From the NCBI GenBank assembly GCA_966427955.1, contig CBJMBI010000001.1:1-54288 (forward strand): 54,288 bases of DNA. The letters run 5' to 3'. Source of the stretch: an uncultured Ktedonobacterales bacterium (lineage in GTDB: Bacteria; Chloroflexota; Ktedonobacteria; Ktedonobacterales; Ktedonobacteraceae). This document shows, one piece after another, positions 6,289 through 28,962 of the stretch. The number at the start of each line of letters is the position of its first letter. The first letter of the stretch is position 1. The translations under genes were made by a program, and so were the position numbers. The notes below the pieces were generated by a model. The model saw only the letters and a program-made list of their open reading frames with translations. It was not told where the DNA came from and made no database searches.

Positions 6289-6371
6289 ATAAAACGAAAC
6301 CTTTTGATCTGAAAAGGAAATCGAGATTGAAGTATAGCGACGTAGAATCTCCCCGTTGTAATAAATGCACG

Positions 6372-6396
6372 GCCCTGCGTAGAGCAGGGCTTTTTT
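6372..6396 (+). terminator. Rho-independent terminator
   Basis: GCCCTGC-GTAGA-GCAGGGC followed by TTTTTT. Confidence 0.8.
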
Positions 6397-9401: not shown

Positions 9402-10088
9402 ATGATGAGTATGAATAATATGGATATGGAAAATAAGGTGTTGGTTCTTGGGCATGTGGGCATGGGTACAGGTGAAGTAGAGCCGTTTGACCAAGTCTTT
9501 AAGCAAGGAAAGCTGCTTCATAGAGATCCCAATGTTGATGGAATTGACGCGCTTGTAATTTGGGGTGGTGAAGATATCAGCCCCAGTCTATATAATGAGG
9601 AAACAAGTAAGTATACAGGGGCTTCCGATACACCATCTTATCGGGATCGAGTAGAAGTTGCGGCGGCACAAGCATGTATCGATGCCGGAATTCCGATTAT
9701 CGGTGTATGTCGTGGAGCACAATTGTTGTGTGCTCTGGCTGGAGGAAAATTAATCCAACATGTGAACCATCATACACGGGACCATTTTATTCGTACCAAC
9801 GACGGGCGACGGATCATGTCCTCCTCGGTACACCATCAAATGATGTACCCGTTTGATGTAGAACATGAATTGTTGGCTTGGTCGGATGTGCGTCAATCGA
9901 ATGTGTATATTGTTGGAGACGATTCGAATTTCGAAACGATGTATGATTATGAGGAACCTGAAGTTGTGTGGTTCCCGAAGATCAAAGGTTTGGCTATCCA
10001 AGGTCATCCGGAATTCCACATGAATCCGGAAATCGATCCCTTTGTACAGTATTGTATCGAACTGGTGAAGAAATATGTCGTGGCCTGA
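9402..10088 (+). CDS. Class-I glutamine amidotransferase-like / peptidase C26 (gamma-glutamyl hydrolase, PuuD-like)
   Basis: Nucleophile-elbow context IIGVCRGAQLL, and a His context AIQGHPEF. The start is chosen at ATG 9402 within track ORF 9339..10088. Confidence 0.8.
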   Translation: MMSMNNMDMENKVLVLGHVGMGTGEVEPFDQVFKQGKLLHRDPNVDGIDALVIWGGEDISPSLYNEETSKYTGASDTPSYRDRVEVAAAQACIDAGIPIIGVCRGAQLLCALAGGKLIQHVNHHTRDHFIRTNDGRRIMSSSVHHQMMYPFDVEHELLAWSDVRQSNVYIVGDDSNFETMYDYEEPEVVWFPKIKGLAIQGHPEFHMNPEIDPFVQYCIELVKKYVVA

Positions 10089-10140
10089 GTGCATTGCCTT
10101 CTGTGTGTTTATTATCGTAATTTTCTGGAGTTAATTTAAA

Positions 10141-10911
10141 ATGTTGACAAATCTTGGTTGTGATCCGGAAGTGTTTCTTGTAGACAACACGGGTAAGTTT
10201 ATTTCGTCTGTTGGTCTTATTGGGGGTTCCAAAGATGCGCCGATGCCCATCGACGATCTGGGAAATGCGGTCCAGGAAGATAACGTGGCCGTCGAATTTA
10301 ACACTCCACCGTGCAGCACTAAGGAGATGTTCATTGAGAACATTCGAAAAAATAAGGAGTGGCTTGCCCAGAAAGCGAAGAGTTTGCAATTATCGGTGGC
10401 GATCACGCCGTCCGCGATTCTAGACGATGATCAATTGCAGACACGGGCCGCTCAAACATTCGGCTGTGAACCTGATTTCAATGCGTGGAAAGGTGGGCGT
10501 ATGAATCCCCGTCCTCGTGCAATGAACCCGAATCTTCGTTCGTGTGGTGGGCACATTCACATTGAATTGCCAGAGTTTGTAGACAAGTGTTTGGTTGTTC
10601 AATGGATGGATCTTTATGTTGGTTGTTTGATGTTGGAATTTGATGATGACACGGCGCGCAGGCAGCTCTATGGTCGGCCTGGGGCTTTTCGTCCTAAGTC
10701 CTATGGCGTGGAGTATCGCACAGTTTCGAATCGTTGGATTGAAGATGATGAAAAGATTTCGTGGATCTGGGATCAAACAGACAAGGCAGTAGATCAGGCA
10801 ATGATGGGCAGAACATTCACGGAAGAACAGGCCCAAAAGATTCAACAGTGTTTGAATACCAGTGACTTGAAGTTACTTGAAGAACTCAAGACGGAGTTTG
10901 AGTTGGTATGA
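10141..10911 (+). CDS. COOH-NH2 ligase, phage phiEco32-like type 2 (GCS2 / glutamine-synthetase-like amidoligase)
   Basis: Motifs GCDPEVFLV, RSCGGHIHIE and YGVEYRTVSNRW, recalled as characteristic of this phage amidoligase family. Confidence 0.7.
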   Translation: MLTNLGCDPEVFLVDNTGKFISSVGLIGGSKDAPMPIDDLGNAVQEDNVAVEFNTPPCSTKEMFIENIRKNKEWLAQKAKSLQLSVAITPSAILDDDQLQTRAAQTFGCEPDFNAWKGGRMNPRPRAMNPNLRSCGGHIHIELPEFVDKCLVVQWMDLYVGCLMLEFDDDTARRQLYGRPGAFRPKSYGVEYRTVSNRWIEDDEKISWIWDQTDKAVDQAMMGRTFTEEQAQKIQQCLNTSDLKLLEELKTEFELV

Positions 10912-11531
10912 ATAACGAACAAATCCTTAACGATTTTCGACGGCGTTATGAGTCAACATATGTTGGCTTGAAACTTCAAAAGGAAAATCGGGAAGTTCTT
11001 GCACATATTGACGTAATCAATTATCATCCCAGTAAGATTGGGATATTAGAGATTACAACCGAAGAATTTGGGAAGTTATCCCTGAATCTTGGGTCAAGCG
11101 GACACTCCTTAATCTTCCATTATCCTAAGACCGGGGTATTCCAATATGGAAGGGAAGCTTGTATTTTTACACGAGAACCTCGTCGACAATACAAACGTGG
11201 ATTGTGTCCGGATAATTCAAATCTTGTTAACACTACGGTAAGAGTATTCGGGAATCTAATTCCATTTAGATTTGCAGCTATTGCCGCCGCATTCAAGCAT
11301 CAAACGTATACTTTGCCGCAAGCATTAGCAATGCTGCAAAATGGTACAGCCCGTAGTGTTGCTTTAGAAAATGATTTTTCAATTTCATTATCACTAACTC
11401 GTGATAAGAAAACATATTTATTATGGTATTGCACCACCATTATTGGAGAATGTGATTCACAGGGAACATTACTTAATGTATTTGAACCGATTTATAAGCA
11501 GCAATTGGAACAATTAATTTACAGAATGTAA
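10908..11531 (+). CDS. Hypothetical protein embedded in the ligase operon
   Basis: 207 aa. ATGA overlap with the upstream ligase. No motif recognised. Confidence 0.6.
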   Translation: MNNEQILNDFRRRYESTYVGLKLQKENREVLAHIDVINYHPSKIGILEITTEEFGKLSLNLGSSGHSLIFHYPKTGVFQYGREACIFTREPRRQYKRGLCPDNSNLVNTTVRVFGNLIPFRFAAIAAAFKHQTYTLPQALAMLQNGTARSVALENDFSISLSLTRDKKTYLLWYCTTIIGECDSQGTLLNVFEPIYKQQLEQLIYRM

Positions 11532-11540
11532 AGTCCTATT

Positions 11541-12437
11541 ATGACAACACCATTGGCTATCTGGGGATTAAAAGCTGTAAAGGCAATTGCGCCGGCGCAA
11601 CGGTTTCTTTCTCCGAAAAATATTCAACTACCTGTGATTGACTCGTCTCAAGTCCTGGGTATTGAGGTTGAAGTTGAAAATCAGTCTGTCATAGAAGGTG
11701 CGGAAATTTCGCGGATTTGGACTATCAAAGATGACGGGTCACTACGGAACAATGGTGCAGAGTGGGTTTCCGCTCCAATGATGGCATCATATGTCCCGGC
11801 AGCGATTCATAATCTTTTTTCGCAACTATCGCCTGATTGCTGTTTCGGTCCACGTACCAGCATCCATGTGCATTTAAATATGCAAGATTGGGAAGAGGAA
11901 CAGATTCAGAATTTGGTTCTCTGGTATTGTGTGTTTGAGAGAATTTTTTATCGATTCACGGGTCGACATCGGCAAGAGAATATTTATTGTGTTCCTTTAT
12001 TGGATACAAACCTCTTAGCTCATCTTAAATCCTATTCGATTTCGAGTTGGGTCGACCGCTGGTCAAAATACACCGGATTGAATTTGATTCCTCTCACAAA
12101 TTACGGGACGATTGAATTCCGGCATATGCATGGTACTTTTAAAACCGAAAAGATTTGTGTGTGGGTGCGAATCTTATGTCGGTTGTGTGAGTTTGTGAAG
12201 AACCATACTCCTGAGTACCATCAAAGTACCTTAATGAGTTTGGATTCAAATAGCAGTGAACTCTCAAATATTTTCAATGAGATTTTTAAAGAAGAGCTAT
12301 CATATTTGAAGACAGTAAATTTAGGAGAAGACACAGTAGAACCTATTCTACGAATGAAATCGGCATTCACTCCAGAGCCGATTCCCCGTCAAGTAGATGT
12401 TGATTTTCGGATTAGTCCTTATATTTTGTTTAAATAA
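11541..12437 (+). CDS. Putative amidoligase (Amidoligase_2-like)
   Basis: Motifs LGIEVEVEN, DGSLRNNGAEWVS, SIHVHLN and YGTIEFRHMHGT. Confidence 0.7.
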   Translation: MTTPLAIWGLKAVKAIAPAQRFLSPKNIQLPVIDSSQVLGIEVEVENQSVIEGAEISRIWTIKDDGSLRNNGAEWVSAPMMASYVPAAIHNLFSQLSPDCCFGPRTSIHVHLNMQDWEEEQIQNLVLWYCVFERIFYRFTGRHRQENIYCVPLLDTNLLAHLKSYSISSWVDRWSKYTGLNLIPLTNYGTIEFRHMHGTFKTEKICVWVRILCRLCEFVKNHTPEYHQSTLMSLDSNSSELSNIFNEIFKEELSYLKTVNLGEDTVEPILRMKSAFTPEPIPRQVDVDFRISPYILFK

Positions 12438-12451
12438 CAGGTACAAAAATT

Positions 12452-14119
12452 ATGTGTGGTATTGTTGGCCTAATTAATCGAACCAAACAAAATTTCACAA
12501 CTCGTGATACTGAGTTACTTGAACAACTGCTTATCGTAGATTCACTGCGTGGGAAAGATTCGGTGGGTGTTTTTAATACCTATCGTAATAACCAAGTAGA
12601 AGCAATCAAACTCGGTAGTAATGTGTTTAATCTACTTCGCTGTCACGAGTGGGCACCGTTCAAAGAACGTATCCAAAAACGGGCTCGCTTTGTGATTGGG
12701 CACAATCGTGCGGCAACTCGTGGATCAGTTACTACAGAGAATGCCCATCCCTTTGCTGAAGATAATATCATGCTGGTCCATAATGGTACGTTATGGAACC
12801 ATGAGGTTTTGACCACTAAGAATTTTGAAGTGGATAGCCAAGCCATTGCACATGCTTTGTCCCAATCCACTCCTGAGAAAGTTCTCCCGTCGTTAATGGG
12901 AGCATTTGCCTTGGTTTGGTACGACACCACAAAGAAAAAGTTGTTCGCAATCAGAAATAAAGAACGTCCGCTTTGCTTGATCCGGACCCGGGAAATGTAT
13001 GTAATCTCATCGGAACCTGCAATCGCTGCTGTTCCAATTACTCGACAAGATCGTAAGATTGAATCGATTGATGAAATTCCGCCGTGGACTTTATTTGAAT
13101 TCTCTATGGATGGGGAGCTTCAAACCCGTGAGATTGAGGAATACGTAACTCGTGTGTATCACTCGAATCATCACTACCACGGAAATAAGTATATGGACTC
13201 GATTCACGAAGCCATCCATGAAATGGACGAAGATAATACGGCTGGATGGGGTACTGATTGTTGTGGTGATGTAACCGATGATCAAGTGGGAGGTATGGTT
13301 GACGCCCCTTTTGTCGAAGAGGGTTCGACGGGAACGAAGACTTGCGCCCTGACATCGCCCTCAAAAAACAACGACAGCGACAAAAACGCGACTGGAATTA
13401 AAAAGTCGGTACAAGATTTAGATGCCCAAGCATTTAATAACACGCGACAATTACATGTCGCTCATGAAACATTACAACGTGGGCGATTGGTGTTATTCAA
13501 GGTAATTGAAATTCGTCCAAATGAAGTATCCGGGCAACGACAATTTAGAGGTAAACTGCACGAAGCTGGCGAACTATTGTATGATGTAGTTGGTTGTTTC
13601 CCAGAAGGAACAACCTTAAAAGAACTAGAAGCACAGTGGTTGGGTAAGTATTGCATGGGCCGAGTGCATTATGTAACTGAATCAATCGGCGGGATTAGTG
13701 CTTATCTGGTGAATACCCATTTGGCTACGATGACCACTTGTTTTGGTAATCAACGTATCCCGCTGGCTGCGTGGAGCATAGCATTGTCAAAATGCAAATG
13801 TTATAAATGTAACGCCACCATTAAGGGACTGGATAAAGATTTTACACAGATTAATGTCCGTAATTTACTGGAGAATTCGTCCACTGATCCACGTAATGAT
13901 ATCCAGGTAATGTGTGCAGATTGTATTGAGAATACATTAACAAAACAACTAAAAGAGGAATTCATTGAAAAACGCAACGACGTCTGGCAAAGGGCGGGCT
14001 ACGGTAGCCCGTACCCCAATCGTAATTCTTCCGTACAAACAGGAGAGCAGGTCGGCAAAGGCACTAGCACAACGAATGGAAAGTCTATTGAACTACCGGG
14101 TTCGGAGACGATCCAGTGA
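12452..14119 (+). CDS. Class-II (Ntn) glutamine amidotransferase domain fused to an unassigned Cys-rich C-terminal half
   Basis: N-terminus MCGIVG (Cys nucleophile), then GHNRAATRG, HPF and HNGTLWN. The C-terminal ~300 aa are unknown and contain CKCYKC...CADC. Confidence 0.8.
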   Translation: MCGIVGLINRTKQNFTTRDTELLEQLLIVDSLRGKDSVGVFNTYRNNQVEAIKLGSNVFNLLRCHEWAPFKERIQKRARFVIGHNRAATRGSVTTENAHPFAEDNIMLVHNGTLWNHEVLTTKNFEVDSQAIAHALSQSTPEKVLPSLMGAFALVWYDTTKKKLFAIRNKERPLCLIRTREMYVISSEPAIAAVPITRQDRKIESIDEIPPWTLFEFSMDGELQTREIEEYVTRVYHSNHHYHGNKYMDSIHEAIHEMDEDNTAGWGTDCCGDVTDDQVGGMVDAPFVEEGSTGTKTCALTSPSKNNDSDKNATGIKKSVQDLDAQAFNNTRQLHVAHETLQRGRLVLFKVIEIRPNEVSGQRQFRGKLHEAGELLYDVVGCFPEGTTLKELEAQWLGKYCMGRVHYVTESIGGISAYLVNTHLATMTTCFGNQRIPLAAWSIALSKCKCYKCNATIKGLDKDFTQINVRNLLENSSTDPRNDIQVMCADCIENTLTKQLKEEFIEKRNDVWQRAGYGSPYPNRNSSVQTGEQVGKGTSTTNGKSIELPGSETIQ

Positions 14120-14798
14120 ACGTACCGATTTTGAAGCCAAGTCTTGGCACCAGTTTATTAATTGGGGAAGTAGCCGGACTATCAACACAAAGACCAATTT
14201 AGTTATCAATCCGCCAGAAGTTGTGCAACGGGCAGGTAATAAACTGCTGACGTTTCAAGCTTTACAAAATAAAGAAGGGATTAATATCCCAGAGTTTACA
14301 ACGGATCGGGGTGTTGCAAGTGGATGGATTGGAACTGGTAAATCTACTGTTGTTTGTCGTACTAAGTTGTCTGGTCATAGTGGTGACGGTATTGTTCTTG
14401 CATCTACGGAAGATCAAATTGTTGATGCTCCATTGTATGTCAAGTATGTTAAAAAGCAGAGAGAGTTCCGAATCCACGTCAGTTTTGGAGAAGTGATTGA
14501 TGTTCAAGAGAAACGAAAACGTCGGGATTTGCCGGAGGAGTTTTCGACAAACTTTCAGGTGCGTAATCATCACACCGGATGGGTCTATTGTCGTGAAAAC
14601 GTGGAACTCTCGGAAGATGCAACAAGAATGGCTGTTGAGGCTTGCCGACAATTGGGACTCGATTTTGGTGCTGTTGACATCATCTATAACGCCAGACAAA
14701 ACTTGTATTACGTGTTGGAAGTTAACACCGCACCGGGCCTTGAAGGAACAACCGTTGACAAATATGCTGAATCTTTTGTAAAGAAATTATCCTTATGA
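13965..14798 (+). CDS. ATP-grasp ligase (RimK/LysX-like)
   Basis: TTG start with AAGAGGA 5 nt upstream. Contains INWGSS, KLSGHSGDGIVL, YVKKQREFRIHV and YYVLEVNTAPGL. Overlaps the upstream gene by 155 nt in another frame. Confidence 0.75.
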   Translation: MKNATTSGKGRATVARTPIVILPYKQESRSAKALAQRMESLLNYRVRRRSSERTDFEAKSWHQFINWGSSRTINTKTNLVINPPEVVQRAGNKLLTFQALQNKEGINIPEFTTDRGVASGWIGTGKSTVVCRTKLSGHSGDGIVLASTEDQIVDAPLYVKYVKKQREFRIHVSFGEVIDVQEKRKRRDLPEEFSTNFQVRNHHTGWVYCRENVELSEDATRMAVEACRQLGLDFGAVDIIYNARQNLYYVLEVNTAPGLEGTTVDKYAESFVKKLSL

Positions 14799-15337
14799 AA
14801 AAAGTTCTAGGTGATATCTGGATCGAAGAGATTCCAGAGAATGGGGAAATTCATTGTGGATTTGTCCAGCAATTCATAGATGAAAACTTAGCAGAATGTT
14901 TTCACATTGTTCCAGCAGACATTGCCAAAACTCATAAAGAAAATCCGATGTTGGTCGTCGAAACTAATACCGGATTGCAGAGTATTAATGCACCAATTGA
15001 TGGTCATATTCTGTTCTTTAATGACAAAGCCCGGGATTTTCCGGAACAGTTAGTTGAAGAGGATGTGGTACTCGGTATCCTGACGATTGAGGAATATAAA
15101 AAACGAAGGGCGACTGTTCCAGCAAAACCGGCACTGGGACCAGCACCGACGCTAAATGATGAGGGTCTCCAGGCTCTTATTAATGGTCAACTAAGGAACC
15201 TACGGGTTAATATAATGCCACCAGTGCGGCCGGCTGCTCCCCGAGGATGGAATTGGGATCCGCAACTGGAGGAAGTAGAGGCGAATAATCGCAATCTGTG
15301 GCCCGATGACGCTGACGATAATGACAACGAAGAATAA
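14795..15337 (+). CDS. GcvH-like (lipoyl/biotinyl-type barrel) protein that lacks the swinging-arm lysine, with a Pro-rich linker and an acidic C-terminal tail
   Basis: VVETNTGLQSINAPIDGHILFFNDKARDFPEQLV aligns by eye with the GcvH segment [33 protein letters not shown] (K replaced by T). The C-terminus is ...DDADDNDNEE. ATGA overlap with the ATP-grasp gene. Confidence 0.45.
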   Translation: MKKVLGDIWIEEIPENGEIHCGFVQQFIDENLAECFHIVPADIAKTHKENPMLVVETNTGLQSINAPIDGHILFFNDKARDFPEQLVEEDVVLGILTIEEYKKRRATVPAKPALGPAPTLNDEGLQALINGQLRNLRVNIMPPVRPAAPRGWNWDPQLEEVEANNRNLWPDDADDNDNEE

Positions 15338-15366
15338 TTACTACTATAACAATAACGAGAGTTTTG

Positions 15367-15621
15367 ATGCGATGCTTAAGCTGTAATCGTCGATTGAATG
15401 ACAAGGAAGCTACACGTAAATACAGTAACAGTGGGGAATATATTGATCTTTGTGATCGTTGTTTCGGTTACATTGCTGATGATGTTCCTGATGTTGACGA
15501 ACCACTAGGGAGTAGTGTCTACGATGATATTGATGATGGCGCTGGCGGTGAACTGGTGGGACGCGACAGTGAAATCGATGGCTTCTACGGAGAAACAGGA
15601 GACAGTAATGAGCAGTGGTAA
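15367..15621 (+). CDS. Zinc-ribbon protein with a strongly acidic C-terminal half
   Basis: MRCLSCNRRL...CDRC, then DDVPDVDEPLGSSVYDDIDDGAGGE...GDSNEQW. GAGAG box 7 nt upstream. Confidence 0.55.
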   Translation: MRCLSCNRRLNDKEATRKYSNSGEYIDLCDRCFGYIADDVPDVDEPLGSSVYDDIDDGAGGELVGRDSEIDGFYGETGDSNEQW

Positions 15622-15898
15622 GGTCACCTGTAAGCAATGTAAAAAGCAATTCTCTTTTGAAGAATGGAATTCAAATAAAGTTTGTGATAATGAAAATTGT
15701 CAACGACCGTGTGCTCAAACGTCAATGCAAATGGCGAAGAAAGTAATTCATCAAATCCAAGAAAACTTAAGGAATAATATCGAAGTAAAGTACAACGATA
15801 TTCCTAACAATTACAATGATGAATCTAAATCATTGTATTATTATGAAGTACCACAAGTCATGGTCACATTGGTAACACCTAAGAACCGGAAGGGGTAA
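15608..15898 (+). CDS. Zinc-ribbon protein
   Basis: ATG 15608 with GGAGA upstream. MSSGKVTCKQCKKQ...CDNENC. Confidence 0.5.
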   Translation: MSSGKVTCKQCKKQFSFEEWNSNKVCDNENCQRPCAQTSMQMAKKVIHQIQENLRNNIEVKYNDIPNNYNDESKSLYYYEVPQVMVTLVTPKNRKG

Positions 15899-16669: not shown

Positions 16670-16863
16670 TTCTATCTTCGGAAAAGGAACGTCTTCTTTG
16701 TTATTCGGCAGGTATTCTTGGTAGTATGTTATCTGCCCGTAATGAAAATGAATCCACTGTCCATGATTGGATGGTACGTCGTAGTATCAAAGCAGCAAAT
16801 AAACTCATCTCTCTAATTGGGGATGATGTTAGATTACAAGAGATCCTAAATGAAAATCTATAA
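16660..16863 (+). CDS. Hypothetical protein
   Basis: 67 aa, overlapping its neighbours on both sides. Confidence 0.45.
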   Translation: MSVILSSEKERLLCYSAGILGSMLSARNENESTVHDWMVRRSIKAANKLISLIGDDVRLQEILNENL

Positions 16864-17560
16864 TGCAGTTTGTCAAATTCTTGCTGTAGCTCTTTGTGTG
16901 TTCGCAACTGGTTGTGGTTATTTAGCTTTAACAACACCGGAACCAGCAGCCTTACTTGAATCAAATCTACAGAATGTTGTATCTGTAACGACAGATAGTG
17001 GTTATTGTAGTGGGTGGGTAAAGACCGATACTCATGAGATTGTTACTGCTGCTCATTGTGGTGATGGGACCTCCTCTCAGATCTTTGATGTAGATTTTGG
17101 GGATGGAGTTAAACATCACTTTCACATTAAATATCTTGGAGATGAGTCCTTAACTGCCGCGACTGATATCATGGTGTTGTACACTACGAGTGAAGAGCAG
17201 CACAAGATTAAATGGCCTAAGGGGTTTAATCTTTGTAACTTTAAACCGTACTACGGGGAAGAAGTGGAACTCTATGGCGGACCTCTCGGCCGAGCGAAGA
17301 GTATTTTCTTCGGGCGGATTGGTAATCCCGACGTAGATATTTCAGCAATGCTTGGGAAAGCACCATTCACATCTCATATGGTAGAGTATGATGGTGAAAT
17401 GTTCCCTGGTAACAGTGGCGGTCCTGCGATTGATATTAGACACAATTGTGTTATGGGATCAGCAGAAGTTGTGCAACGAGAAGATCACGGTCTTGGGACT
17501 AGTTCTTGGGGAGTGAACTTCTTTATTCCCGGTAGTGATATTGAAAAGGTGGTTGTATGA
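16850..17560 (+). CDS. Trypsin-like (S1) serine protease with a lipoprotein-type signal peptide
   Basis: Triad contexts VTAAHCGDG, TDIMVL and PGNSGGPA. The N-terminus MKIYNAVCQILAVALCVFATGCGY carries a lipobox-like ATGC. Confidence 0.8.
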   Translation: MKIYNAVCQILAVALCVFATGCGYLALTTPEPAALLESNLQNVVSVTTDSGYCSGWVKTDTHEIVTAAHCGDGTSSQIFDVDFGDGVKHHFHIKYLGDESLTAATDIMVLYTTSEEQHKIKWPKGFNLCNFKPYYGEEVELYGGPLGRAKSIFFGRIGNPDVDISAMLGKAPFTSHMVEYDGEMFPGNSGGPAIDIRHNCVMGSAEVVQREDHGLGTSSWGVNFFIPGSDIEKVVV

Positions 17561-18541: not shown

Positions 18542-18882
18542 ATAAAATCCTGTTGTATTTTCGTAACATCATTACTGTGTTAGTACATATTCCCCTGGCA
18601 GTAGTGGGAAAGTACAAGTACCACCCGAATGACAGCTATCTCAAGAATCTCATTGTGACGGCCTTGGACCTGCCTCTGAATACCCTCCTAGGGGGTGACC
18701 CTAACGAGACGCTCTCAAGCCGTTCTGGTAAGGCTGAGGCCTATGAACAGAGCAAGGGAATCTGGGGATGGGGGTGTAGGTTGTGTTCTTTCCTCGGAGT
18801 CTTCCAAAAGGACCACTGTCAGCGGGCTGTGGATCGGAACCGGGGAAGAGAAGCTGTAATCCCGGATGAAGAAAAAGTTTGA
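18538..18882 (+). CDS. Hypothetical protein with an N-terminal hydrophobic helix
   Basis: GTG start overlapping the upstream TGA. VNKILLYFRNIITVLVHIPLAVVGKY...LNTLLGGDPNETLSSRSGKA... Confidence 0.5.
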   Translation: MNKILLYFRNIITVLVHIPLAVVGKYKYHPNDSYLKNLIVTALDLPLNTLLGGDPNETLSSRSGKAEAYEQSKGIWGWGCRLCSFLGVFQKDHCQRAVDRNRGREAVIPDEEKV

Positions 18883-18907
18883 CAAACCTATTAAAATATG
18901 ATATACT
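18879..18907 (+). promoter_or_regulatory. Near-consensus sigma70 promoter
   Basis: TTGACA (18879..18884), a 17-nt spacer, then TATACT (18902..18907). Confidence 0.65.
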
Positions 18908-19196: not shown

Positions 19197-19640
19197 ATGA
19201 AAGAATTATTTGAAGAATTAAGACAAGAATTAATTTACTATCCTGAATCGGGTGTGTTCTTTTGGGTACACCCGAAGAAAGGTAGACCCCTTGATATTGA
19301 AGCAGGTACTACCAATATCTATGGATACAGAATTATTACTTACAATAATCATAAGATATCTTGTAATAAACTTGCTTGGTATTTTATGACTGGAGAATAT
19401 CCTGAATTCTTAATTGGACCGAAGGATGGTAATCCCTCTAATTTAAAATGGGATAATCTTATTCGAACTACTCGGGCTGAAATACAACACGCTTTTCGTA
19501 AGAAAGGAGAAGAACTTAATAAAAAGGTAATTCCTAGTAAACCAGTTAAACATGCTACCTTTAGTAATAAACAAGTAAAAGAAGCAGTAGAAGAGTATAT
19601 TAAGCTGCAAGAGCTTCAACGCAGCGCTGAGCGCAGCTAA
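19197..19640 (+). CDS. HNH_3-type homing-endonuclease-like protein with a degenerate catalytic motif
   Basis: LIYYPESGVFFWV...GYRIITYNNHKISCNKLAWYFMTGEYP...IGPKDGNPSNLKWDNLIRTTRAE fits the HNH_3 layout, but the usual DH(I/V)DGN is GPKDGN here. The coding sequence is very AT-rich. Confidence 0.6.
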   Translation: MKELFEELRQELIYYPESGVFFWVHPKKGRPLDIEAGTTNIYGYRIITYNNHKISCNKLAWYFMTGEYPEFLIGPKDGNPSNLKWDNLIRTTRAEIQHAFRKKGEELNKKVIPSKPVKHATFSNKQVKEAVEEYIKLQELQRSAERS

Positions 19641-21606: not shown

Positions 21607-22285
21607 TTTAATTACGGTTCTTGATTATGGACATATCCGTCTTGTTGAGCACATGGGTAGTGATCTTTCCATTGTTCGGAATGCTCGCGTTAGCTATGAT
21701 GCGGAGTGGAGAACAGGAGAAGATGCCGGAAAGGATGAGAAGCTTATCCGGTACTTGTTGAACAATAAGCACACCAGTCCTTTTGAATCGGTGACCTTTA
21801 CCTTTGATATTAAAGCACCGATCTTTGTGGTGCGTCAATGGCAACGTCACCGTACGTGGTCATTCAATGAAATCTCAGGACGATACGCTGAACTACCGGA
21901 GGAGTATTACACTCCACAAATTGGAGATATTACTACACAGCACAGTTCTAATAAACAGATGCGTACTGATGAGGTACATCCAGATGCCGCCGAGTGGCAA
22001 CTGCTGATGTATCAGACTTGTCAAAATGCATTTTATGTTTATCATGAAATGTTAGAAGCCGGAGTACCCCGTGAGTTAGCACGAAGTGTATTACCTCTTA
22101 GTACATATACACATATGTTTGCTACTGTGGATCTTCACAATCTGATGCATTTTCTGCGACTTCGATTGCACGAGCATGCACAGAAAGAGATTCGGGTATA
22201 TGCACAAGCTATCCTGGATCTAATTGAACCTATTGTACCGGTAACATTGAATGCCTTCAAAGAATCTCTTGGCGCTGGATACTGA
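21599..22285 (+). CDS. thyX: FAD-dependent thymidylate synthase ThyX
   Basis: ThyX signature QRHRTWSFNEISGRY. The start is ATG 21599 (MSNLITVLDYGHIRLVEHMG). Confidence 0.9.
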   Translation: MSNLITVLDYGHIRLVEHMGSDLSIVRNARVSYDAEWRTGEDAGKDEKLIRYLLNNKHTSPFESVTFTFDIKAPIFVVRQWQRHRTWSFNEISGRYAELPEEYYTPQIGDITTQHSSNKQMRTDEVHPDAAEWQLLMYQTCQNAFYVYHEMLEAGVPRELARSVLPLSTYTHMFATVDLHNLMHFLRLRLHEHAQKEIRVYAQAILDLIEPIVPVTLNAFKESLGAGY

Positions 22286-23396
22286 AAATAATATTTGGAA
22301 CAATGGAAACCCCTTCGACCGACGATTTAAAAATGTATGCTTTAGTTGGGCAGATTCAAGTAGCTCTGGAGCAAGTAAGACAGACTCGGATTCAATTGCT
22401 TGGCTTACGGAACGAATTAGAGGGGCTTCATGTCTCATTGGTTTCAATGCGAAGTATGATTGCCATGTCCTCCGGAAACTCGGAATCATAGAGCACCTAG
22501 AAAAGGAGTGGTGGGATTGTCAAATCGCCGAATTCATCCTAAGCAATCAAACGTGGAGGTATCCGAGTCTAGACGAGAGTTGTCTGAATCGTGGCCTTGG
22601 CTCGAAGCTGGATGTTGTGGCAAACGAGTATTGGGCAAAAGGCATTCAGACGGAGGATGTTCCTTGGGAGGTTTTGTCCGCTTATGCCGAGATGGATGCC
22701 CAACTTACTTTAAAGCTTTACGAGAAGCAGCAGGAAGTCATGTCTCCCACACAAAAGAGACTGTGTCGTCTTCAGTGCATGGACATGATGGTACTGGAGG
22801 AGATGGAGTGGAACGGGATTAAGTTTGACCAAGAACTCTGTGAGAAACGCGCTGCGGAACTTGAGGAAAAAATACAAGAAATCACAAATGAACTTTCTGG
22901 AGTATATCCTGGGATACCTATTAATTTTGGTAGTGGGGACCATCTGTCTGCCTTTCTATATGGTGGAGTGGTTAAAGAGGAAACTAAAGAACACATAGGA
23001 TTCTTTAAGACCGGAGAACGTAGTGGACAACCTAAATACAAGAATGTAATTGTTGAACATGAATTGCCACGATTAGTTGAACCACTAAAGGGAAGTGAGT
23101 TAAAGAAAGAGGGATATTTTGCTACAAATGCCGATACTCTTCTTAAACTTAAACCACGTGGTAAGACAAAACATATTGTTGAATTGATCCAGAAACAAAC
23201 TCGATTGGATAGTTTATTAACGAAAACCTATCGAGGAATTACCAAAGCAAATGAGACAGGTAATTGGAATCCAGGAATGTTGCACGGACAATTCAATCAA
23301 TGTGTAGCACAAACAGGTCGTCTTAGTTCTAGTAATCCAAATCTCCAGAACTTAGATGGTGAAGCACAAGATATTTTTATTTCAAGGTTTGAATAA
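22251..23396 (+). CDS. Family-A DNA polymerase, part 1 (3'-5' exonuclease domain plus fingers, ending just before motif A)
   Basis: Exo motifs LALDTENN, NAKYDCHVL and YAEMDAQLT. Pre-motif-A QTGRLSSSNPNLQNL. The ORF then ends ...DIFISRFE-TAA. Confidence 0.9.
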   Translation: MPSKNLLALDTENNIWNNGNPFDRRFKNVCFSWADSSSSGASKTDSDSIAWLTERIRGASCLIGFNAKYDCHVLRKLGIIEHLEKEWWDCQIAEFILSNQTWRYPSLDESCLNRGLGSKLDVVANEYWAKGIQTEDVPWEVLSAYAEMDAQLTLKLYEKQQEVMSPTQKRLCRLQCMDMMVLEEMEWNGIKFDQELCEKRAAELEEKIQEITNELSGVYPGIPINFGSGDHLSAFLYGGVVKEETKEHIGFFKTGERSGQPKYKNVIVEHELPRLVEPLKGSELKKEGYFATNADTLLKLKPRGKTKHIVELIQKQTRLDSLLTKTYRGITKANETGNWNPGMLHGQFNQCVAQTGRLSSSNPNLQNLDGEAQDIFISRFE

Positions 23397-23571: not shown

Positions 23572-23730
23572 ATGTCCGAATCGGAAGTGCTTGATAAGAT
23601 TTTGGAAGCTTTTGTGGGTGATGAGTATACGTCAGGGTGGGATACACTGGCGGAATTTCTTAATCACATTGGAAATGATGAAGCAGTATTAATGCTGCAC
23701 CAAGCTATTCATAAATACTTTGGAGACTGA
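23572..23730 (+). CDS. 52-aa micro-protein between the polymerase halves
   Basis: MSESEVLDKILEAFVGDEYTSGWDTLAEFLNHIGNDEAVLMLHQAIHKYFGD. Its TGA overlaps the ATG of pol part 2 (TGATG). Confidence 0.45.
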   Translation: MSESEVLDKILEAFVGDEYTSGWDTLAEFLNHIGNDEAVLMLHQAIHKYFGD

Positions 23731-24458
23731 TGCCTCTTGTTGCATGTGATGCAAGTCAACTCGAATGGCGGACAATATTGCAATTGTCCCAGGACCAAGT
23801 CGGGATCGCGGAGGTTGTTGAAGGCCAAGATACACACTCGCTTAATGAAAAAGCCTTCTCCCTTCCTTCTCGCCTTATTGCAAAGATCTACTTATTTCGT
23901 ACCATCTTCCGGGGTTCTGGATATGCATTCTCTGTTGATCCCGCCTTCATGCATGTATCCTCAGATCCAAAATATTGGGATGCTGTCGGAGAGAAGTTCT
24001 ATGCTAAATATTACGGGATCGATGCTCAACACAAATACTGGTGGGAAGTGGTGCAGCGAGGAGATCCAATCGTCGGTCCGACAGGTCGGCAGTGGACAAT
24101 CAATATTGGGAGAGATCGTTGGGGCAATCTCAAGATTCCTTGGACGACATTAACAAACTATCCAGTGCAGGGTACTGGTGCCGACGTGATGATGATTGCT
24201 CGCATCTCGTTCCACCGAAGATTGAAGGCGGCTGGTATTCCAGTTCTACTGGTCAGTACGGTACACGACTCAATCGTGGTAGATACACCGAGTATGTATG
24301 TGGATCATGTGGTGGAACTTATGTATTCTGTCTTCGACGATCTGGTGATTAACATTAACCGGACCTTTAAATGTGGGTGGAATGTTCCACTTGGATGTGA
24401 AGTGAAGGTGGGGCCAGATATGTTAAACATGAAGAAGGTAGATCGAAATGGCGTATGA
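23730..24458 (+). CDS. Family-A DNA polymerase, part 2 (motifs A, B and C)
   Basis: Begins with motif A, LVACDASQLEWR. Motif B-like SRLIAKIYLFRTIFRGSG. Motif C STVHDSIVVD. Confidence 0.9.
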   Translation: MPLVACDASQLEWRTILQLSQDQVGIAEVVEGQDTHSLNEKAFSLPSRLIAKIYLFRTIFRGSGYAFSVDPAFMHVSSDPKYWDAVGEKFYAKYYGIDAQHKYWWEVVQRGDPIVGPTGRQWTINIGRDRWGNLKIPWTTLTNYPVQGTGADVMMIARISFHRRLKAAGIPVLLVSTVHDSIVVDTPSMYVDHVVELMYSVFDDLVININRTFKCGWNVPLGCEVKVGPDMLNMKKVDRNGV

Positions 24459-27917: not shown

Positions 27918-28116
27918 TAACGATTGGAAACGGTTTGAGGAACTTGTGTACCAAGCTGGTGGGGTTCTTCACGATGGGAGTGCCCTTACACAAGACCAAG
28001 CAGCACATGCAATGTCTTTCCACACTTTAGGATTAGCGATTCTTGATTTATTGGCCCGATTTAACGCTACCCCCAATCAACCTGAACAACGTAGGATCAT
28101 TGTACCGCATGGCTGA
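27910..28116 (+). CDS. Hypothetical protein
   Basis: 68 aa. Confidence 0.4.
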   Translation: MDDNDWKRFEELVYQAGGVLHDGSALTQDQAAHAMSFHTLGLAILDLLARFNATPNQPEQRRIIVPHG

Positions 28117-28474
28117 ACTACAACAGTTAATTGGACGTAAAGAGGATCATGAAAAGCCTCGAATGGATCTACTTGATCCTTGGGCATTGGAGGGGTTGGC
28201 TGCCGTACTTACCTTTGGTGCCAGAAAATATGAAGCCTATAACTGGGCACATGGAATTCACTATAGTCGGTTGGTTGCTGCTTTGGAGCGCCATCTTGGG
28301 TCTATCAAGAAAGGTGAGTATATTGATGGCGAAAGCGGGTTACCTCACATTGATCATCTTGGTTGTTGTTGGTTGTTTCTTTCTGCTCTTATGAAAAAGG
28401 ATCCAAAACAACCTTGGGACGATTTACCATATGGACCACATGGCATACTCCGAGCACAAAAAGAAAATCTATAA
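28109..28474 (+). CDS. dATP/dGTP diphosphohydrolase N-terminal-domain-like protein (DUF5664-type)
   Basis: KPRMDLLDPWALEGLAAVLTFGARKYEAYNWAHG matches the family signature as recalled. ATG 28109 within track ORF 28043..28474. Confidence 0.6.
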   Translation: MAELQQLIGRKEDHEKPRMDLLDPWALEGLAAVLTFGARKYEAYNWAHGIHYSRLVAALERHLGSIKKGEYIDGESGLPHIDHLGCCWLFLSALMKKDPKQPWDDLPYGPHGILRAQKENL

Positions 28475-28616
28475 ACAACATTATGATAACAATAAGCAAG
28501 AACTTTTAGCCCGTAATAAAAAGTGGGCTGAAGATAATTTTGAGAAATATATTTTGAATAATTTCAAGCGGCGTCCTGACTTGAATGACTTATGGATACC
28601 TGATGACAATCATTAA
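28431..28616 (+). CDS. Hypothetical protein
   Basis: 61 aa, Lys-rich. Confidence 0.4.
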   Translation: MDHMAYSEHKKKIYKQHYDNNKQELLARNKKWAEDNFEKYILNNFKRRPDLNDLWIPDDNH

Positions 28617-28962
28617 AATGTTAAAAGATATGGAAGCTACGGGCCAGTTTAACTATTACCAGCACGAAGCAAGTACATTTGCGAAGTACCCTAAAGAAGG
28701 TGATAAACCCGAGTTAATGTATTTAGCATTAGGGCTTACGGGTGAATCTGGTGAAGTGGCTGAGAAAATTAAGAAATTCTATCGGGACGGATCTTTAGAT
28801 CGTGACAATTTAGCTAAAGAGCTTGGTGATGTTCTTTGGTATCTTAGTCAGATTGCACGACATATTAGTTGGGATTTAAACAGTATTGTTGATTTAAATC
28901 TTTCTAAACTTCATAGTCGAAAAGAACGTGGAGTATTAGGTGGATCAGGTGACGACCGTTAA
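28603..28962 (+). CDS. mazG: MazG-like nucleoside triphosphate pyrophosphohydrolase
   Basis: LALGLTGESGEVAEKIKK and KELGDVLWYL (the EXXE...D motifs). The start is uncertain (28585, 28603 or 28618). Confidence 0.85.
   Translation: MTIIKMLKDMEATGQFNYYQHEASTFAKYPKEGDKPELMYLALGLTGESGEVAEKIKKFYRDGSLDRDNLAKELGDVLWYLSQIARHISWDLNSIVDLNLSKLHSRKERGVLGGSGDDR

Follow-up and report, generated by a model that had tools for sequence, protein, structure and literature searches.

The window analysed here, a 54,288-nucleotide stretch of DNA, holds a compact run of genes for enzymes that form or hydrolyse amide bonds, which raises the question of what these enzymes make together and on which acceptor. An initial annotation had read the run as a five-enzyme operon with an uncharacterised 207-aa gene mid-way, and we found all seven ORFs on the plus strand, every motif that it had cited in their translations, and an ATGA junction at each of 10908 and 14795. 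Tight coupling plus overlaps give the cassette genes an operon structure, and the cassette (9402-14798), together with an accessory gene (14795-15337), occupies a place immediately upstream of primase within the early/replication arm. All cassette proteins were checked for signal or transmembrane segments; none has any, and the proteins are cytoplasmic.

9402..10088, plus strand: C26 hydrolase of class-I GATase fold (Pfam Peptidase_C26, 4.6e-20); accessory
10141..10911, plus strand: phiEco32-type COOH-NH2 ligase of the GS/GCS superfamily (Pfam PF14395, 1e-8); core
10908..11531, plus strand: U207, predicted beta-barrel protein with no Pfam family; core
11541..12437, plus strand: Amidoligase_2, a second GS-type carboxylate-amine ligase (Pfam PF12224, 1e-9); core
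12452..14119, plus strand: class-II (Ntn) GATase-fold protein (Pfam GATase_6, 1.6e-17); core
13965..14798, plus strand: RimK-type ATP-grasp ligase, alpha-L-glutamate-ligase-like (Pfam RimK, 4.2e-9); core
14795..15337, plus strand: GcvH-like protein without the lipoyl-lysine (profile against GcvH structures); clade-specific accessory
15364..15621: Zn-ribbon acidic protein

Enzyme families and conserved residues

The five families originally assigned (C26, COOH-NH2 ligase, Amidoligase_2, GATase and ATP-grasp) were all recovered by Pfam and PHROG profiles with their catalytic residues kept, and the Pfam matches of the cassette ORFs all exceed the gathering cut-offs. The COOH-NH2 ligase matches PHROG 3815 (1.9e-70) and has 42 invariant residues, including E10, E52, E110, H138, H140, E191 and R193; no solved structure was detectable for it by sequence. 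Amidoligase_2 matches PHROG 7469 (1.4e-40) and is invariant at E42, E44, E46, D65, S67, R105, H109, H111, E192 and R194. Both GS-type ligases keep an E-x-E / H-x-H / E-x-R pattern, of which the H-x-H motif alone aligned when the two were compared with hhalign.

The ATP-grasp protein (PHROG 2599, 6e-80) has invariant K93, R132, E167, K183, R200, D238 and N254, and its profile matched RimK in the PDB (5zct/4iwx, 5.5e-12). In NCBIfam it matched rimK_fam (1.1e-17; 64 bits against a cut-off of 143), MptN (2e-15) and CofF (1.2e-5), all under their cut-offs. Its gene starts at a TTG at 13965 behind a good Shine-Dalgarno sequence (AAGAGG), and over its first 155 nt it shares sequence with the GATase tail in a different frame, an overlap kept in the clade. 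The C26 protein, which also matches Pfam GATase (1.1e-8), has a C103/H202/E204 triad kept in 100% of 36 homologues, and its best NCBIfam matches were gamma-glutamyl-CDP-amidate hydrolase (1.4e-11) and PuuD (6.4e-5), again under the equivalog cut-offs; its sequence suggests a peptidase C26 hydrolase of the gamma-glutamyl-amide type. Because the cassette's NCBIfam scores fall far under the equivalog cut-offs, substrate specificity is not transferable from these relatives.

The GATase-fold protein, of which the protein database contains at least 2001 homologues, is invariant at C2, R33-G34, H84-x-R86, N111-G112 and D128, and its GATase_6 match covers residues 1 to ~220 only. What had been described as an unassigned, Cys-rich half of ~300 aa indeed has no family match, and the AlphaFold2 model (pLDDT >90 for the folded domains) refines it: after an N-terminal glutaminase/gamma-glutamyl-binding domain (aa 1-237) come a disordered linker (238-312), a beta-barrel and CxxC..CxxC Zn-ribbon domain (320-515) and, last, a tail that is again disordered. 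Foldseek matched the N-domain to the glutaminase domains of GlmS, PurF, GFAT and EgtC (1e-14 to 1e-11). No sequence match to the C-domain was found in Pfam or the PDB, and the model depicts it as a novel beta-barrel plus Zn-ribbon domain, whose ribbon cysteines (C450, C453, C488 and C491) are invariant among homologues.

U207 occurs in 41 of 45 loci, always between the two ligase genes in an invariant Lig-U207-Amid2 order, and is translationally coupled via ATGA. It matches gp033 of Cronobacter phage A24 and, weakly, orf47 of PaP3. Searches with its AlphaFold2 model (pLDDT 89.9, pTM 0.83) returned nothing significant from the PDB, the best matches being weak Tudor/SH3-like barrels (E of at least 0.014), and in BFVD it matched only proteins, themselves uncharacterised, of phages that carry the cassette (CW02, for example). 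A loop, RxPxRQ[WY][KR][RK]G, is near-invariant, with P91 and Q94. The model confidently predicts a non-enzymatic beta-barrel protein, which we regard as a putative adaptor or substrate-binding subunit.

Distribution and earlier descriptions of the cassette

The order C26-Lig-U207-Amid2-GATase-Grasp recurred in at least 40 of the 45 viral loci that were retrieved independently, and cassette synteny was also found in Alcaligenes phage QDWS535, PaP3 and Cronobacter A24, in phage contigs binned into MAGs, and in two more contigs with independent gene calls. Because corresponding genes recur in one and the same order across viral loci, their clustering is far beyond chance, and 9402-14798 is almost certainly a member of a conserved phage amidoligase cassette. 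By tblastn the COOH-NH2 ligase had matches in 314 phage records, including PaP3/LUZ24, phiEco32-like, Vibrio and Aeromonas phages. Judged from sequence searches, the two ligase families are essentially phage-restricted: among 185,579 species genomes they occur in only 26 loci, and almost all of these lie on contigs of phage size.

Ligase, U207, amidoligase, GATase and ATP-grasp form the universal core, which revises the five-enzyme operon in two respects: the 207-aa gene belongs to the core, and C26 (40 of 45 viral loci, not detected in PaP3) is accessory, as are GGCT and the GcvH-like protein. The window shares with the known phage cassette the COOH-NH2 ligase, ~200-aa uncharacterised protein, Amidoligase_2, class-II GATase and RimK-like ATP-grasp in the same order, and the position in the early arm upstream of primase/helicase. 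Whereas PaP3 has GGCT and no C26, the window's clade has C26 and no GGCT; it further adds the GcvH-like protein and a GATase tail of ~40-60 aa that ends in [TS]-hydrophobic-[Q/H] and overlaps the ATP-grasp gene. Identity of the cassette proteins to those of isolated phages is only 33-52%.

Iyer in 2009 and Hardies in 2013 reportedly treated the phage amidoligase cassette as a module that putatively modifies peptidoglycan. The cassettes of phiEco32, PaP3/LUZ24/tf/UFV-P2, RIO-1/PSA-HP1, CW02 and 7-11 have been described (PMC5498523, PMC11945000, PMC3890496; see also PMC10580990), with cell-wall modification or superinfection exclusion as the published interpretation. Because it had already been described, the window's cassette is not a novel system; the initial annotation's statement that comparative genomics had noted related phage neighbourhoods was correct. 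In the searchable literature we found, as the initial annotation had stated, no experimentally defined product, and no experiments on any cassette homologue.

Chemistry and candidate acceptors

The idea of a multi-step amide-bond pathway built on gamma-glutamyl/glutamate chemistry held up. Every one of the closest characterised relatives is a glutamyl enzyme: RimK, MptN and CofF; gamma-glutamyl-CDP-amidate hydrolase and PuuD; and the glutaminase domains of GlmS, PurF and EgtC. We think it probable that the cassette performs a glutamate-centred ligate-and-trim chemistry. Both GS/GCS-type ligases would couple an amine to a carboxylate activated with ATP, so forming gamma-glutamyl-type bonds, and the ATP-grasp would extend a terminal carboxylate by an alpha-linked L-glutamate or a similar amino acid. 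For the Ntn GATase there are two options, amidation of a carboxylate with glutamine-derived ammonia or removal of a gamma-glutamyl group in the manner of EgtC, while the C26 hydrolase would act on N5-substituted glutamines and take off their gamma-glutamyl groups. U207 and the beta-barrel/Zn-ribbon domain of the GATase, presumed non-catalytic, may hold the acceptor or assemble the enzymes.

Known gamma-glutamyl handle pathways use a GS/GCS-type ligase to form a gamma-glutamyl amide, which a C26 or Ntn hydrolase later removes, as in PuuA/PuuD (GS-like ligase and C26) and EgtA/EgtC (GCS-type ligase and Ntn amidohydrolase); Cj1417 is a gamma-glutamyl-CDP-amidate hydrolase. The cassette has matching enzyme-family pairings, its C26 being nearest to Cj1417-type enzymes and PuuD and EgtC appearing among its GATase fold matches, but it lacks the oxidases, sulfoxide synthase, kinases and cytidylyltransferase of those pathways and has two ligases plus an ATP-grasp.

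Taken whole, the reading that we tentatively prefer is of a cytoplasmic, early-expressed, glutamate-centred ligate-and-trim assembly with a non-DNA acceptor, to which we give somewhat less than even confidence. The homologous cassette of phage HP1 is expressed immediately on infection (PMC7082346). That the acceptor is a small molecule or precursor is possible to a similar, not quite even, degree. The leading named candidate would be a host cytoplasmic envelope precursor, either the UDP-MurNAc stem peptide or some other carboxylated precursor of an envelope glycan, in which case the cell surface would be altered after infection. A peptidoglycan precursor specifically, argued from enzyme-family analogy, is doubtful: the known stem-peptide enzymes are Mur ligases, and none is present in the cassette. 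Small molecules of other kinds that bear a Glu tail (cofactor polyglutamate tails, gamma-glutamyl amines or thiols) would be nearly as likely. The neighbourhood of the only clearly chromosomal ligase homologue (an alpha/beta-hydrolase, an NAD sugar epimerase/dehydratase and a TPR-heptosyltransferase) hints at the envelope, as a single case. A hint of a phenotype comes from a LUZ24-like phage evolved on biofilm, in which parallel missense mutations arose in amidoligase and GATase in two lines (PMC11450229).

Alternative readings

U207, the GATase C-domain and conserved C-terminus, and the GcvH-like carrier fold are easier to reconcile with a substrate that is macromolecular or tethered than with a free metabolite. 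They would suit a carrier-tethered or protein-tagging system in the style of LysW/LysX, PEARL scaffolds or Pup/PafA/Dop, in which residues are built or attached on a phage protein and hydrolases trim or release them; we consider such a system unlikely. Candidate sites would be the GATase tail, the invariant-Gln loop of U207, which is conserved and locked between both ligases, and the acidic hairpin of the GcvH-like protein. Linker and tail of the GATase are disordered, and the tail, which ends ...ETIQ in the window, closes with Q or H after T/S-hydrophobic in 51 of 60 homologues, even where the gene does not overlap that of the ATP-grasp. However, the tail is clade-specific (the PaP3 GATase has none), and beyond its last three residues it is no better conserved than the overlapping ATP-grasp frame (0.19 versus 0.23 identity). 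Half of the tails end in His, which, unlike the Gln of Pup, is not deamidatable. GS-superfamily ligases and a disordered, often Gln-terminated tail do recall Pup-PafA-Dop, but the phage tail belongs to an enzyme instead of a small tag protein, homology of the ligases to PafA or Dop was not detected, and the cassette has no proteasome genes.

The closest solved ATP-grasp relatives target C-terminal glutamates of proteins or cofactors, and the gene 3' of the ATP-grasp, coupled to it by ATGA, encodes a GcvH-like swinging-arm fold (aa 1-112) followed by a non-conserved C-terminal extension; a profile of nine homologues matched 12 distinct GcvH structures (best 2ka7_A, E=1.2e-4). Its lipoyl-lysine column is, however, variable (T, D, E or Y; T in the window), and the protein occurs in only 11-12 loci, always immediately after the ATP-grasp; the proteins in the equivalent position in PaP3 (orf44) and A24 (gp036) have no common conserved C-terminus. 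The acidic-tailed proteins encoded just downstream had been proposed as tag targets, and we found no support for them: the tails of 14795-15337 and 15364-15621 vary in length, sequence and terminal residue, and the Zn-ribbon protein accompanies primase even in MEP402, a phage without the ATP-grasp. A RimK/LysX-type ATP-grasp adjoining small Zn-ribbon or acidic proteins resembles LysW/LysX, but the window's Zn-ribbon protein lacks a conserved C-terminal motif and tracks primase, and no Lys/Arg biosynthetic enzymes accompany the cassette.

It is improbable that the RimK-like ligase and its partners glutamylate or otherwise modify S6 or another acidic C-terminus of a host protein, reprogramming translation or another process. 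By solved structure and by curated family, the ATP-grasp has its best relatives in S6-glutamate ligases (RimK, like MptN and CofF, shares its fold and conserved K, R and Mg ligands), expression is early, and the cassette spans phages of very different hosts, so that the target should be universal. RimK alone, however, is enough for S6, which leaves four more conserved enzymes and an adaptor over; the ATP-grasp scores under the curated family cut-offs, the cassette lacks RimA/RimB partners, and nothing was found tying any host protein to it.

Hypermodification of DNA or nucleotides, in which a carboxylated base would be amidated or phage DNA would receive amino acids or amines, on the model of CmoY or thymidine-hypermodification pathways, is very improbable. 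The cassette always adjoins replication and nucleotide-metabolism genes, some viral contigs carry Pfam domains of amidoligase and GATase together with thymidine-hypermodification genes (PMC8989533), an ATP-dependent amide ligase for 5-carboxymethylcytosine is known (PMC12783734), and the predicted secondary structure suggests an OB-like strand order beside the Zn-ribbon of the GATase C-domain. Against this, the scanned plus-strand genes include no base-activating enzyme (dUMP hydroxymethylase, 5-HMUDK, aGPT-Pplase, CmoA/CmoX or TET/JBP), CmoY is an asparagine-synthetase homologue and not a GS-type ligase (PMC12783734), and 11 of 16 restriction enzymes cut the DNA of U17, a LUZ24-like phage that carries the cassette, making it the most sensitive of four phages tested (PMC11945000).

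The idea that the genes simply enhance the host's synthesis of glutamine, asparagine, purines or amino sugars, as database names such as 'GlmS' and 'S6 glutaminyl transferase' would have it, draws on the likeness of the GATase N-domain to the GlmS and PurF glutaminase domains, but is at odds with the phage restriction of the ligases and with NCBIfam scores far below cut-off (glmS 62 versus 418, purF 46 versus 350, asn_synth 48 versus 267), and is effectively ruled out by the GATase architecture, in which the apparently novel barrel/Zn-ribbon half stands in place of a GlmS isomerase, PurF PRTase or AsnB synthetase domain.

Gene layout and enzyme families

The initial annotation had proposed an operon of amide-bond enzymes in this region, and all of the ORFs that it claimed were present, every quoted motif included, at 9.3–15.7 kb of the + strand. 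Profile searches bore out its five family assignments, all with scores exceeding the Pfam cut-offs, and the ATGA overlaps at 10908 and 14795 were verified; these overlaps aside, the intergenic gaps in the cassette were 2–52 nt.

Genes of the cassette, with profile matches
9402–10088, + strand: Peptidase_C26 (C26); Pfam 4.6e-20
10141–10911, + strand: COOH-NH2_lig (PF14395), the COOH-NH2 ligase; Pfam 1e-8, above GA; PHROG 3815 1.9e-70
10908–11531, + strand: U207, a protein of 207 aa; no family in a Pfam scan
11541–12437, + strand: Amidoligase_2; Pfam 1e-9; PHROG 1.4e-40
12452–14119, + strand: GATase_6, the class-II GATase; Pfam 1.6e-17, first ~220 residues only
13965–14798, + strand: RimK-type ATP-grasp; Pfam 4.2e-9, 36.7 bits versus a GA of 21; PHROG 6e-80

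PHROG profiles matched the ligase, amidoligase and ATP-grasp far more strongly than did Pfam. The Cys-His-Glu triad of C26 (C103/H202/E204) was kept in 36 of 36 homologues, the ATP-grasp conserved the K/R/E/D/N set of ATP/Mg residues, and both GS-type ligases had invariant E-x-E, H-x-H and E-x-R patterns. PDB profile searches found no solved homologue of either GS-type ligase by sequence, and when the two were aligned against each other with hhalign, the H-x-H motif alone aligned. The invariant residues of the GATase were C2, R33-G34, H84-x-R86, N111-G112 and D128, which we take to be the Ntn Cys nucleophile and the Arg, Asn-Gly and Asp residues that bind glutamine. The end of the GATase gene overlapped the N terminus of the ATP-grasp out of frame by 155 nt (13965–14119), and we regard this overlap as genuine because the TTG start of the ATP-grasp is preceded by an AAGAGG Shine-Dalgarno sequence. 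The overlap was kept across the clade of the window's close relatives, spanning 76–257 nt by ORF and 59–95 nt into the conserved ATP-grasp domain.

The ATP-grasp resembled RimK (PDB RimK structures at 5.5e-12; Pfam RimK above GA), and its curated-model matches were rimK_fam, MptN and CofF, all of them alpha-L-glutamate ligases that extend a terminal glutamate. It nevertheless scored below the curated cut-offs, at 64.3 versus 143.4 bits for rimK_fam and 32 versus 331 bits for the S6-ligase model. The best curated matches of C26 were gamma-glutamyl-CDP-amidate hydrolase and PuuD, both of which cleave N5-substituted glutamines; the GATase had EgtC among its fold matches and presumably retains the residues for binding glutamine or a gamma-glutamyl group through its free alpha-amino and alpha-carboxylate groups. 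The nearest characterised relatives of these three enzymes handle glutamyl amides, and the reading of the cassette as amide-bond chemistry holds. Because the scores were far below the equivalog cut-offs, the specificity of these relatives is not transferable to the cassette enzymes.

In layout the window resembles a complete bidirectional genome of podovirus type, with early and replication genes on the + strand (3.6–31.7 kb) and late genes on the − strand. Directly 3′ of the cassette were genes for two small Zn-ribbon proteins, primase, a trypsin-like lipoprotein, DnaB and ThyX, followed by a split family-A polymerase, a 5′-3′ exonuclease, Endonuclease I, a MazZ-like N-domain protein, MazG and a class-II RNR. 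Consensus scans placed a strong intrinsic-terminator-like hairpin at 6371–6391 (8 bp, 6 GC, T-run) and a sigma-70-like promoter at 18879–18907 (11/12 match, extended −10), positions which suggest that the cassette probably belongs to a longer early/middle transcript rather than forming its own operon. The two elements may bracket a transcription unit that holds the cassette and the primase.

Distribution and conserved core

With the phiEco32/PaP3/RIO-1-type cassette the window shares the ligase, a ~200-aa gene between the ligases, Amidoligase_2, GATase and ATP-grasp, but whereas PaP3 has a gamma-glutamyl cyclotransferase (AIG2/GGCT), none was found in the window by tblastn. The cassette order was the same in PaP3 and Cronobacter phage A24, as it is in UFV-P2 (PMC3890496), and the nearest isolated phage, Alcaligenes phage QDWS535, carried a run of COOH-NH2 ligase, hypothetical protein, amidoligase, Gn_AT_II and ATP-grasp. 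Amidoligase_2, the class-II GATase and the RimK-like ATP-grasp stood in one strand block 5′ of primase/helicase, and two more contigs, for which genes had been called independently and Pfam annotation precomputed, had the same layout. By tblastn, 314 phage records contained the ligase and 344 the GATase, the hosts including Pseudomonas, Escherichia, Vibrio, Aeromonas, Proteus and Cronobacter. The GATase had at least 2001 database homologues, and carriers of the ligase include therapy-relevant LUZ24/PaP3-like Pseudomonas phages and phiEco32-like coliphages. At the DNA level, megablast against phage records found no close relatives of the region.

The window copy is a divergent member of a known phage cassette characterised by sequence alone. 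Its novelty had been overstated, since the literature already treats the cassette as a unit, under the name 'putative peptidoglycan modification module' (PMC11945000), and a passage elsewhere attributes to Iyer et al. 2009 a role for it in cell-wall modification and superinfection blocking (PMC10580990). In the papers cited, these two included, the peptidoglycan function is an inference, and the label has been passed from paper to paper as such. Full-text literature searches found no experimental test of any cassette member, and the statement in the initial annotation that no product had been experimentally defined stood up in the same searches. Two published observations bear on it indirectly: in phage HP1, transcription of the cassette starts immediately on infection (PMC7082346), and missense changes in the amidoligase and GATase arose in two lines of a LUZ24-like phage that had evolved independently (PMC11450229).

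For a census of gene content, we retrieved 43 ligase-carrying loci from IMG/VR and queried them with an iterated profile for each protein of the window, counting out of 45 loci. The ligase was present in 44/45, Amidoligase_2 in 42/45, the ATP-grasp in 42/45, U207 in 41/45, the GATase N-domain in 41/45 and C26 in 40/45; GGCT occurred in 7/44 related loci, and PaP3 has GGCT and not C26. From these counts, the universal core is four enzymes plus U207, and the pattern of C26 and GGCT suggests that they are alternative or additional accessories for removing gamma-glutamyl groups and do not define the cassette. The order ligase-U207-amidoligase was invariant (41 loci), even where C26, GATase and ATP-grasp were permuted. 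A second arrangement, without a separate U207, ran ATP-grasp, C26, ligase, long GATase (650–800 aa) and long amidoligase (490–616 aa), and was found in loci L054, L057, L058, L061, L062, L065 and L013. Its amidoligase had an N-terminal extension of 190–300 aa, a size fitting a fused adaptor; we rejected fusion of U207 itself, as there was no detectable similarity. The long versions of the GATase, amidoligase and ATP-grasp contained no informative fused Pfam domains.

Across 185,579 species, each represented by a single genome, a scan returned only 26 loci, nearly all of them on phage-sized MAG contigs with the full cassette, so the ligase family is essentially phage-restricted. The single clearly chromosomal homologue (L072, 8995–9951) was a ligase alone on a 546-kb Bacteriovoracaceae contig, adjoining genes for an alpha/beta-hydrolase, an NAD-dependent sugar epimerase/dehydratase and a TPR-heptosyltransferase, a neighbourhood which, as one anecdote, points to envelope glycan chemistry. 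An intein-containing subtilase gene lies upstream of this ligase. In the phiEco32-like Cronobacter phage A24 (L047, 1–2258), genes for a ribose-phosphate pyrophosphokinase and a nicotinamide phosphoribosyltransferase lie ~7 kb 5′ of the cassette, with no counterpart among the scanned window ORFs.

Putative non-catalytic modules and downstream proteins

The predicted fold of U207 was confident (pLDDT 89.9, pTM 0.83) and mostly beta. Neither profile nor structure searches gave a significant PDB match, the closest resemblance being a weak one to Tudor/SH3-like barrels (E >= 0.014), and its structural relatives among viral models were only uncharacterised proteins of cassette phages such as CW02 and Vp_R1. 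The U207 profile matched A24 gp033, as well as PaP3 orf47 at E=8.6e-4, and the family had a near-invariant loop, RxPxRQ[WY][KR][RK]G. We read U207 as a putative non-catalytic adaptor or substrate-binding subunit.

Residues 1–237 of the GATase formed an Ntn glutaminase domain, with Foldseek matches at 1e-14 to 1e-11 to GlmS, PurF, GFAT and EgtC (the query was the full model, and its matches were dominated by the N-domain). In the structure model, a disordered linker (238–312) led to a confident domain (320–515), its strands ordered b1-b2-b3-a-b4-b5 ahead of a Zn-ribbon whose four cysteines are invariant, and then to a disordered tail (524–555). The C-domain had no sequence relative in Pfam or PDB. 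Of 60 full-length homologues, 51 had a tail ending in [TS]-hydrophobic-[Q/H]; this ending also occurred in loci without the GATase/ATP-grasp overlap, and the tail was missing from the PaP3 GATase. Only the last three residues were robust; the part upstream was no better conserved than the overlapping frame, and independent selection on the tail could not be demonstrated (the last 15 aa were 0.19 identical, versus 0.23 for the overlapping ATP-grasp frame).

The acidic-tailed proteins encoded downstream had been put forward as possible substrates, a suggestion that failed: the tails were not conserved, and neither protein behaved like LysW or S6. The first, at 14795–15337, begins with a GcvH-like domain (14795–15130) directly 3′ of the ATP-grasp; a 9-sequence profile of this domain matched 12 GcvH structures (best E=1.2e-4). 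In place of the lipoyl-lysine of the E-S-V-K hairpin it has T, and its homologues have D, E or Y, making it a carrier fold minus the attachment lysine within an amide-ligase cassette. The protein was confined to the window's immediate clade, and its acidic tail was rejected as a RimK-type acceptor, being variable, with conservation limited to the GcvH-like N-domain. The second, which we call ZnAc (15364–15621), had a conserved Zn-ribbon (MRCxxCN...DLCNxC) and an acidic tail that varied in length, sequence and terminus, the C-terminal residue being Y, E, D, W, N, Q, R, P or L. Its family recurred in 26/45 loci, and its homologue in phage MEP402, where the ATP-grasp is missing, overlaps the primase start. 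With a variable C terminus and a gene linked to primase, ZnAc was rejected as a LysW-like amino-group carrier and is probably a replication accessory outside the cassette. A second small Zn-ribbon protein (15608–15898) likewise lies just 5′ of the primase. We also discarded PaP3 orf44 and A24 gp036 as conserved C-terminal-Glu acceptors, on the grounds of a restricted family and differing termini.

Candidate pathways and acceptors

The glutamyl-amide chemistry of the relatives, and the absence of signal or membrane segments from every cassette protein, lead us to propose that the cassette would encode a cytoplasmic, early, glutamate-centred pathway that ligates and trims, acting on an acceptor other than DNA. 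The envelope precursor of the published proposal is the leading named candidate for this acceptor, though itself somewhat unlikely; other small molecules with a Glu tail come close behind it. Archaeal-virus occurrence, considered as a test against the peptidoglycan idea, was uninformative, as the virus concerned had only two of the cassette genes and a predicted host.

Against a small-molecule acceptor stands a serious rival, a substrate that is tethered or a protein, which the conserved non-catalytic modules would fit better and which we hold to be somewhat unlikely. More improbable still is that the cassette represents a new kind of protein-templated amide-bond machine, in which a glutamate-containing moiety would be built up on a swinging arm encoded by the phage, to be freed or passed on by the C26 and Ntn hydrolases. 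Candidate arms are the [TS]-hydrophobic-[Q/H] tail of the GATase, the invariant-Gln loop of U207 and the lysine-less GcvH-like hairpin, and in a phage such a machine would parallel LysW/PEARL scaffolded biosynthesis or Pup-like tagging.

DNA hypermodification is unlikely. A Pfam scan of 29 larger + strand ORFs of the early arm found no dUMP hydroxymethylase/5-HMUDK/aGPT-Pplase, CmoA/CmoX, TET/JBP or DpdA, and the only nucleotide-metabolism genes among these ORFs were ThyX, MazG, the MazZ-like N-domain and RNR. Moreover, the characterised DNA amide ligase CmoY has a different fold (PMC12783734), and the DNA of a cassette-bearing LUZ24-like phage is cut normally by most restriction enzymes (PMC11945000). 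Ordinary GlmS, PurF or AsnB metabolism is excluded by the domain architecture of the GATase, which has a novel barrel and Zn-ribbon as its C-half and no cognate synthase domain (sugar isomerase, PRTase or Asn synthetase), and by its low NCBIfam scores (bits versus cut-off: GlmS 62/418, PurF 46/350, AsnB 48/267).

The interest of the cassette rests in this family-wide question and not in the window copy: few multi-enzyme modules without an experimentally known product are as widespread among lytic phages. Solving it would reveal either a new early phage remodelling of host envelope or metabolism or an amide chemistry of a new type, based on a protein or a carrier, and would also mend database labels that mislead, 'GlmS' and 'S6 glutaminyl transferase' among them. 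Cultured phages are better experimental entry points than the window copy, which adds a divergent clade and three leads: the putative U207 adaptor, the GATase barrel/Zn-ribbon with its conserved C terminus, and the lysine-less GcvH-like protein.

Several other features of the window were observed alongside the cassette. PADLOC defence models gave no matches. A MazZ-like dATP/dGTP diphosphohydrolase N-terminal domain (28043–28474; PF18909, 4.6e-27) is adjoined by MazG (28585–28962); the scanned ORFs included no PurZ-like gene, which leaves a 2-aminoadenine genome without support. The ORF at 16850–17560, conserved in 4 close loci only, encodes a trypsin-like serine protease of the replication arm (Trypsin_2, 6e-9); it has a hydrophobic segment at the N terminus and a lipobox-like FATGC, and is predicted to be an exported lipoprotein. 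A weak HNH_3 endonuclease-like ORF (19197–19640) lies directly 5′ of the DnaB helicase gene. The family-A DNA polymerase is divided between two ORFs (22251–23396 and 23730–24458), separated by a gap of ~330 nt with a possible small ORF inside; split polymerases are also reported from LUZ24-like and phiEco32-like phages.
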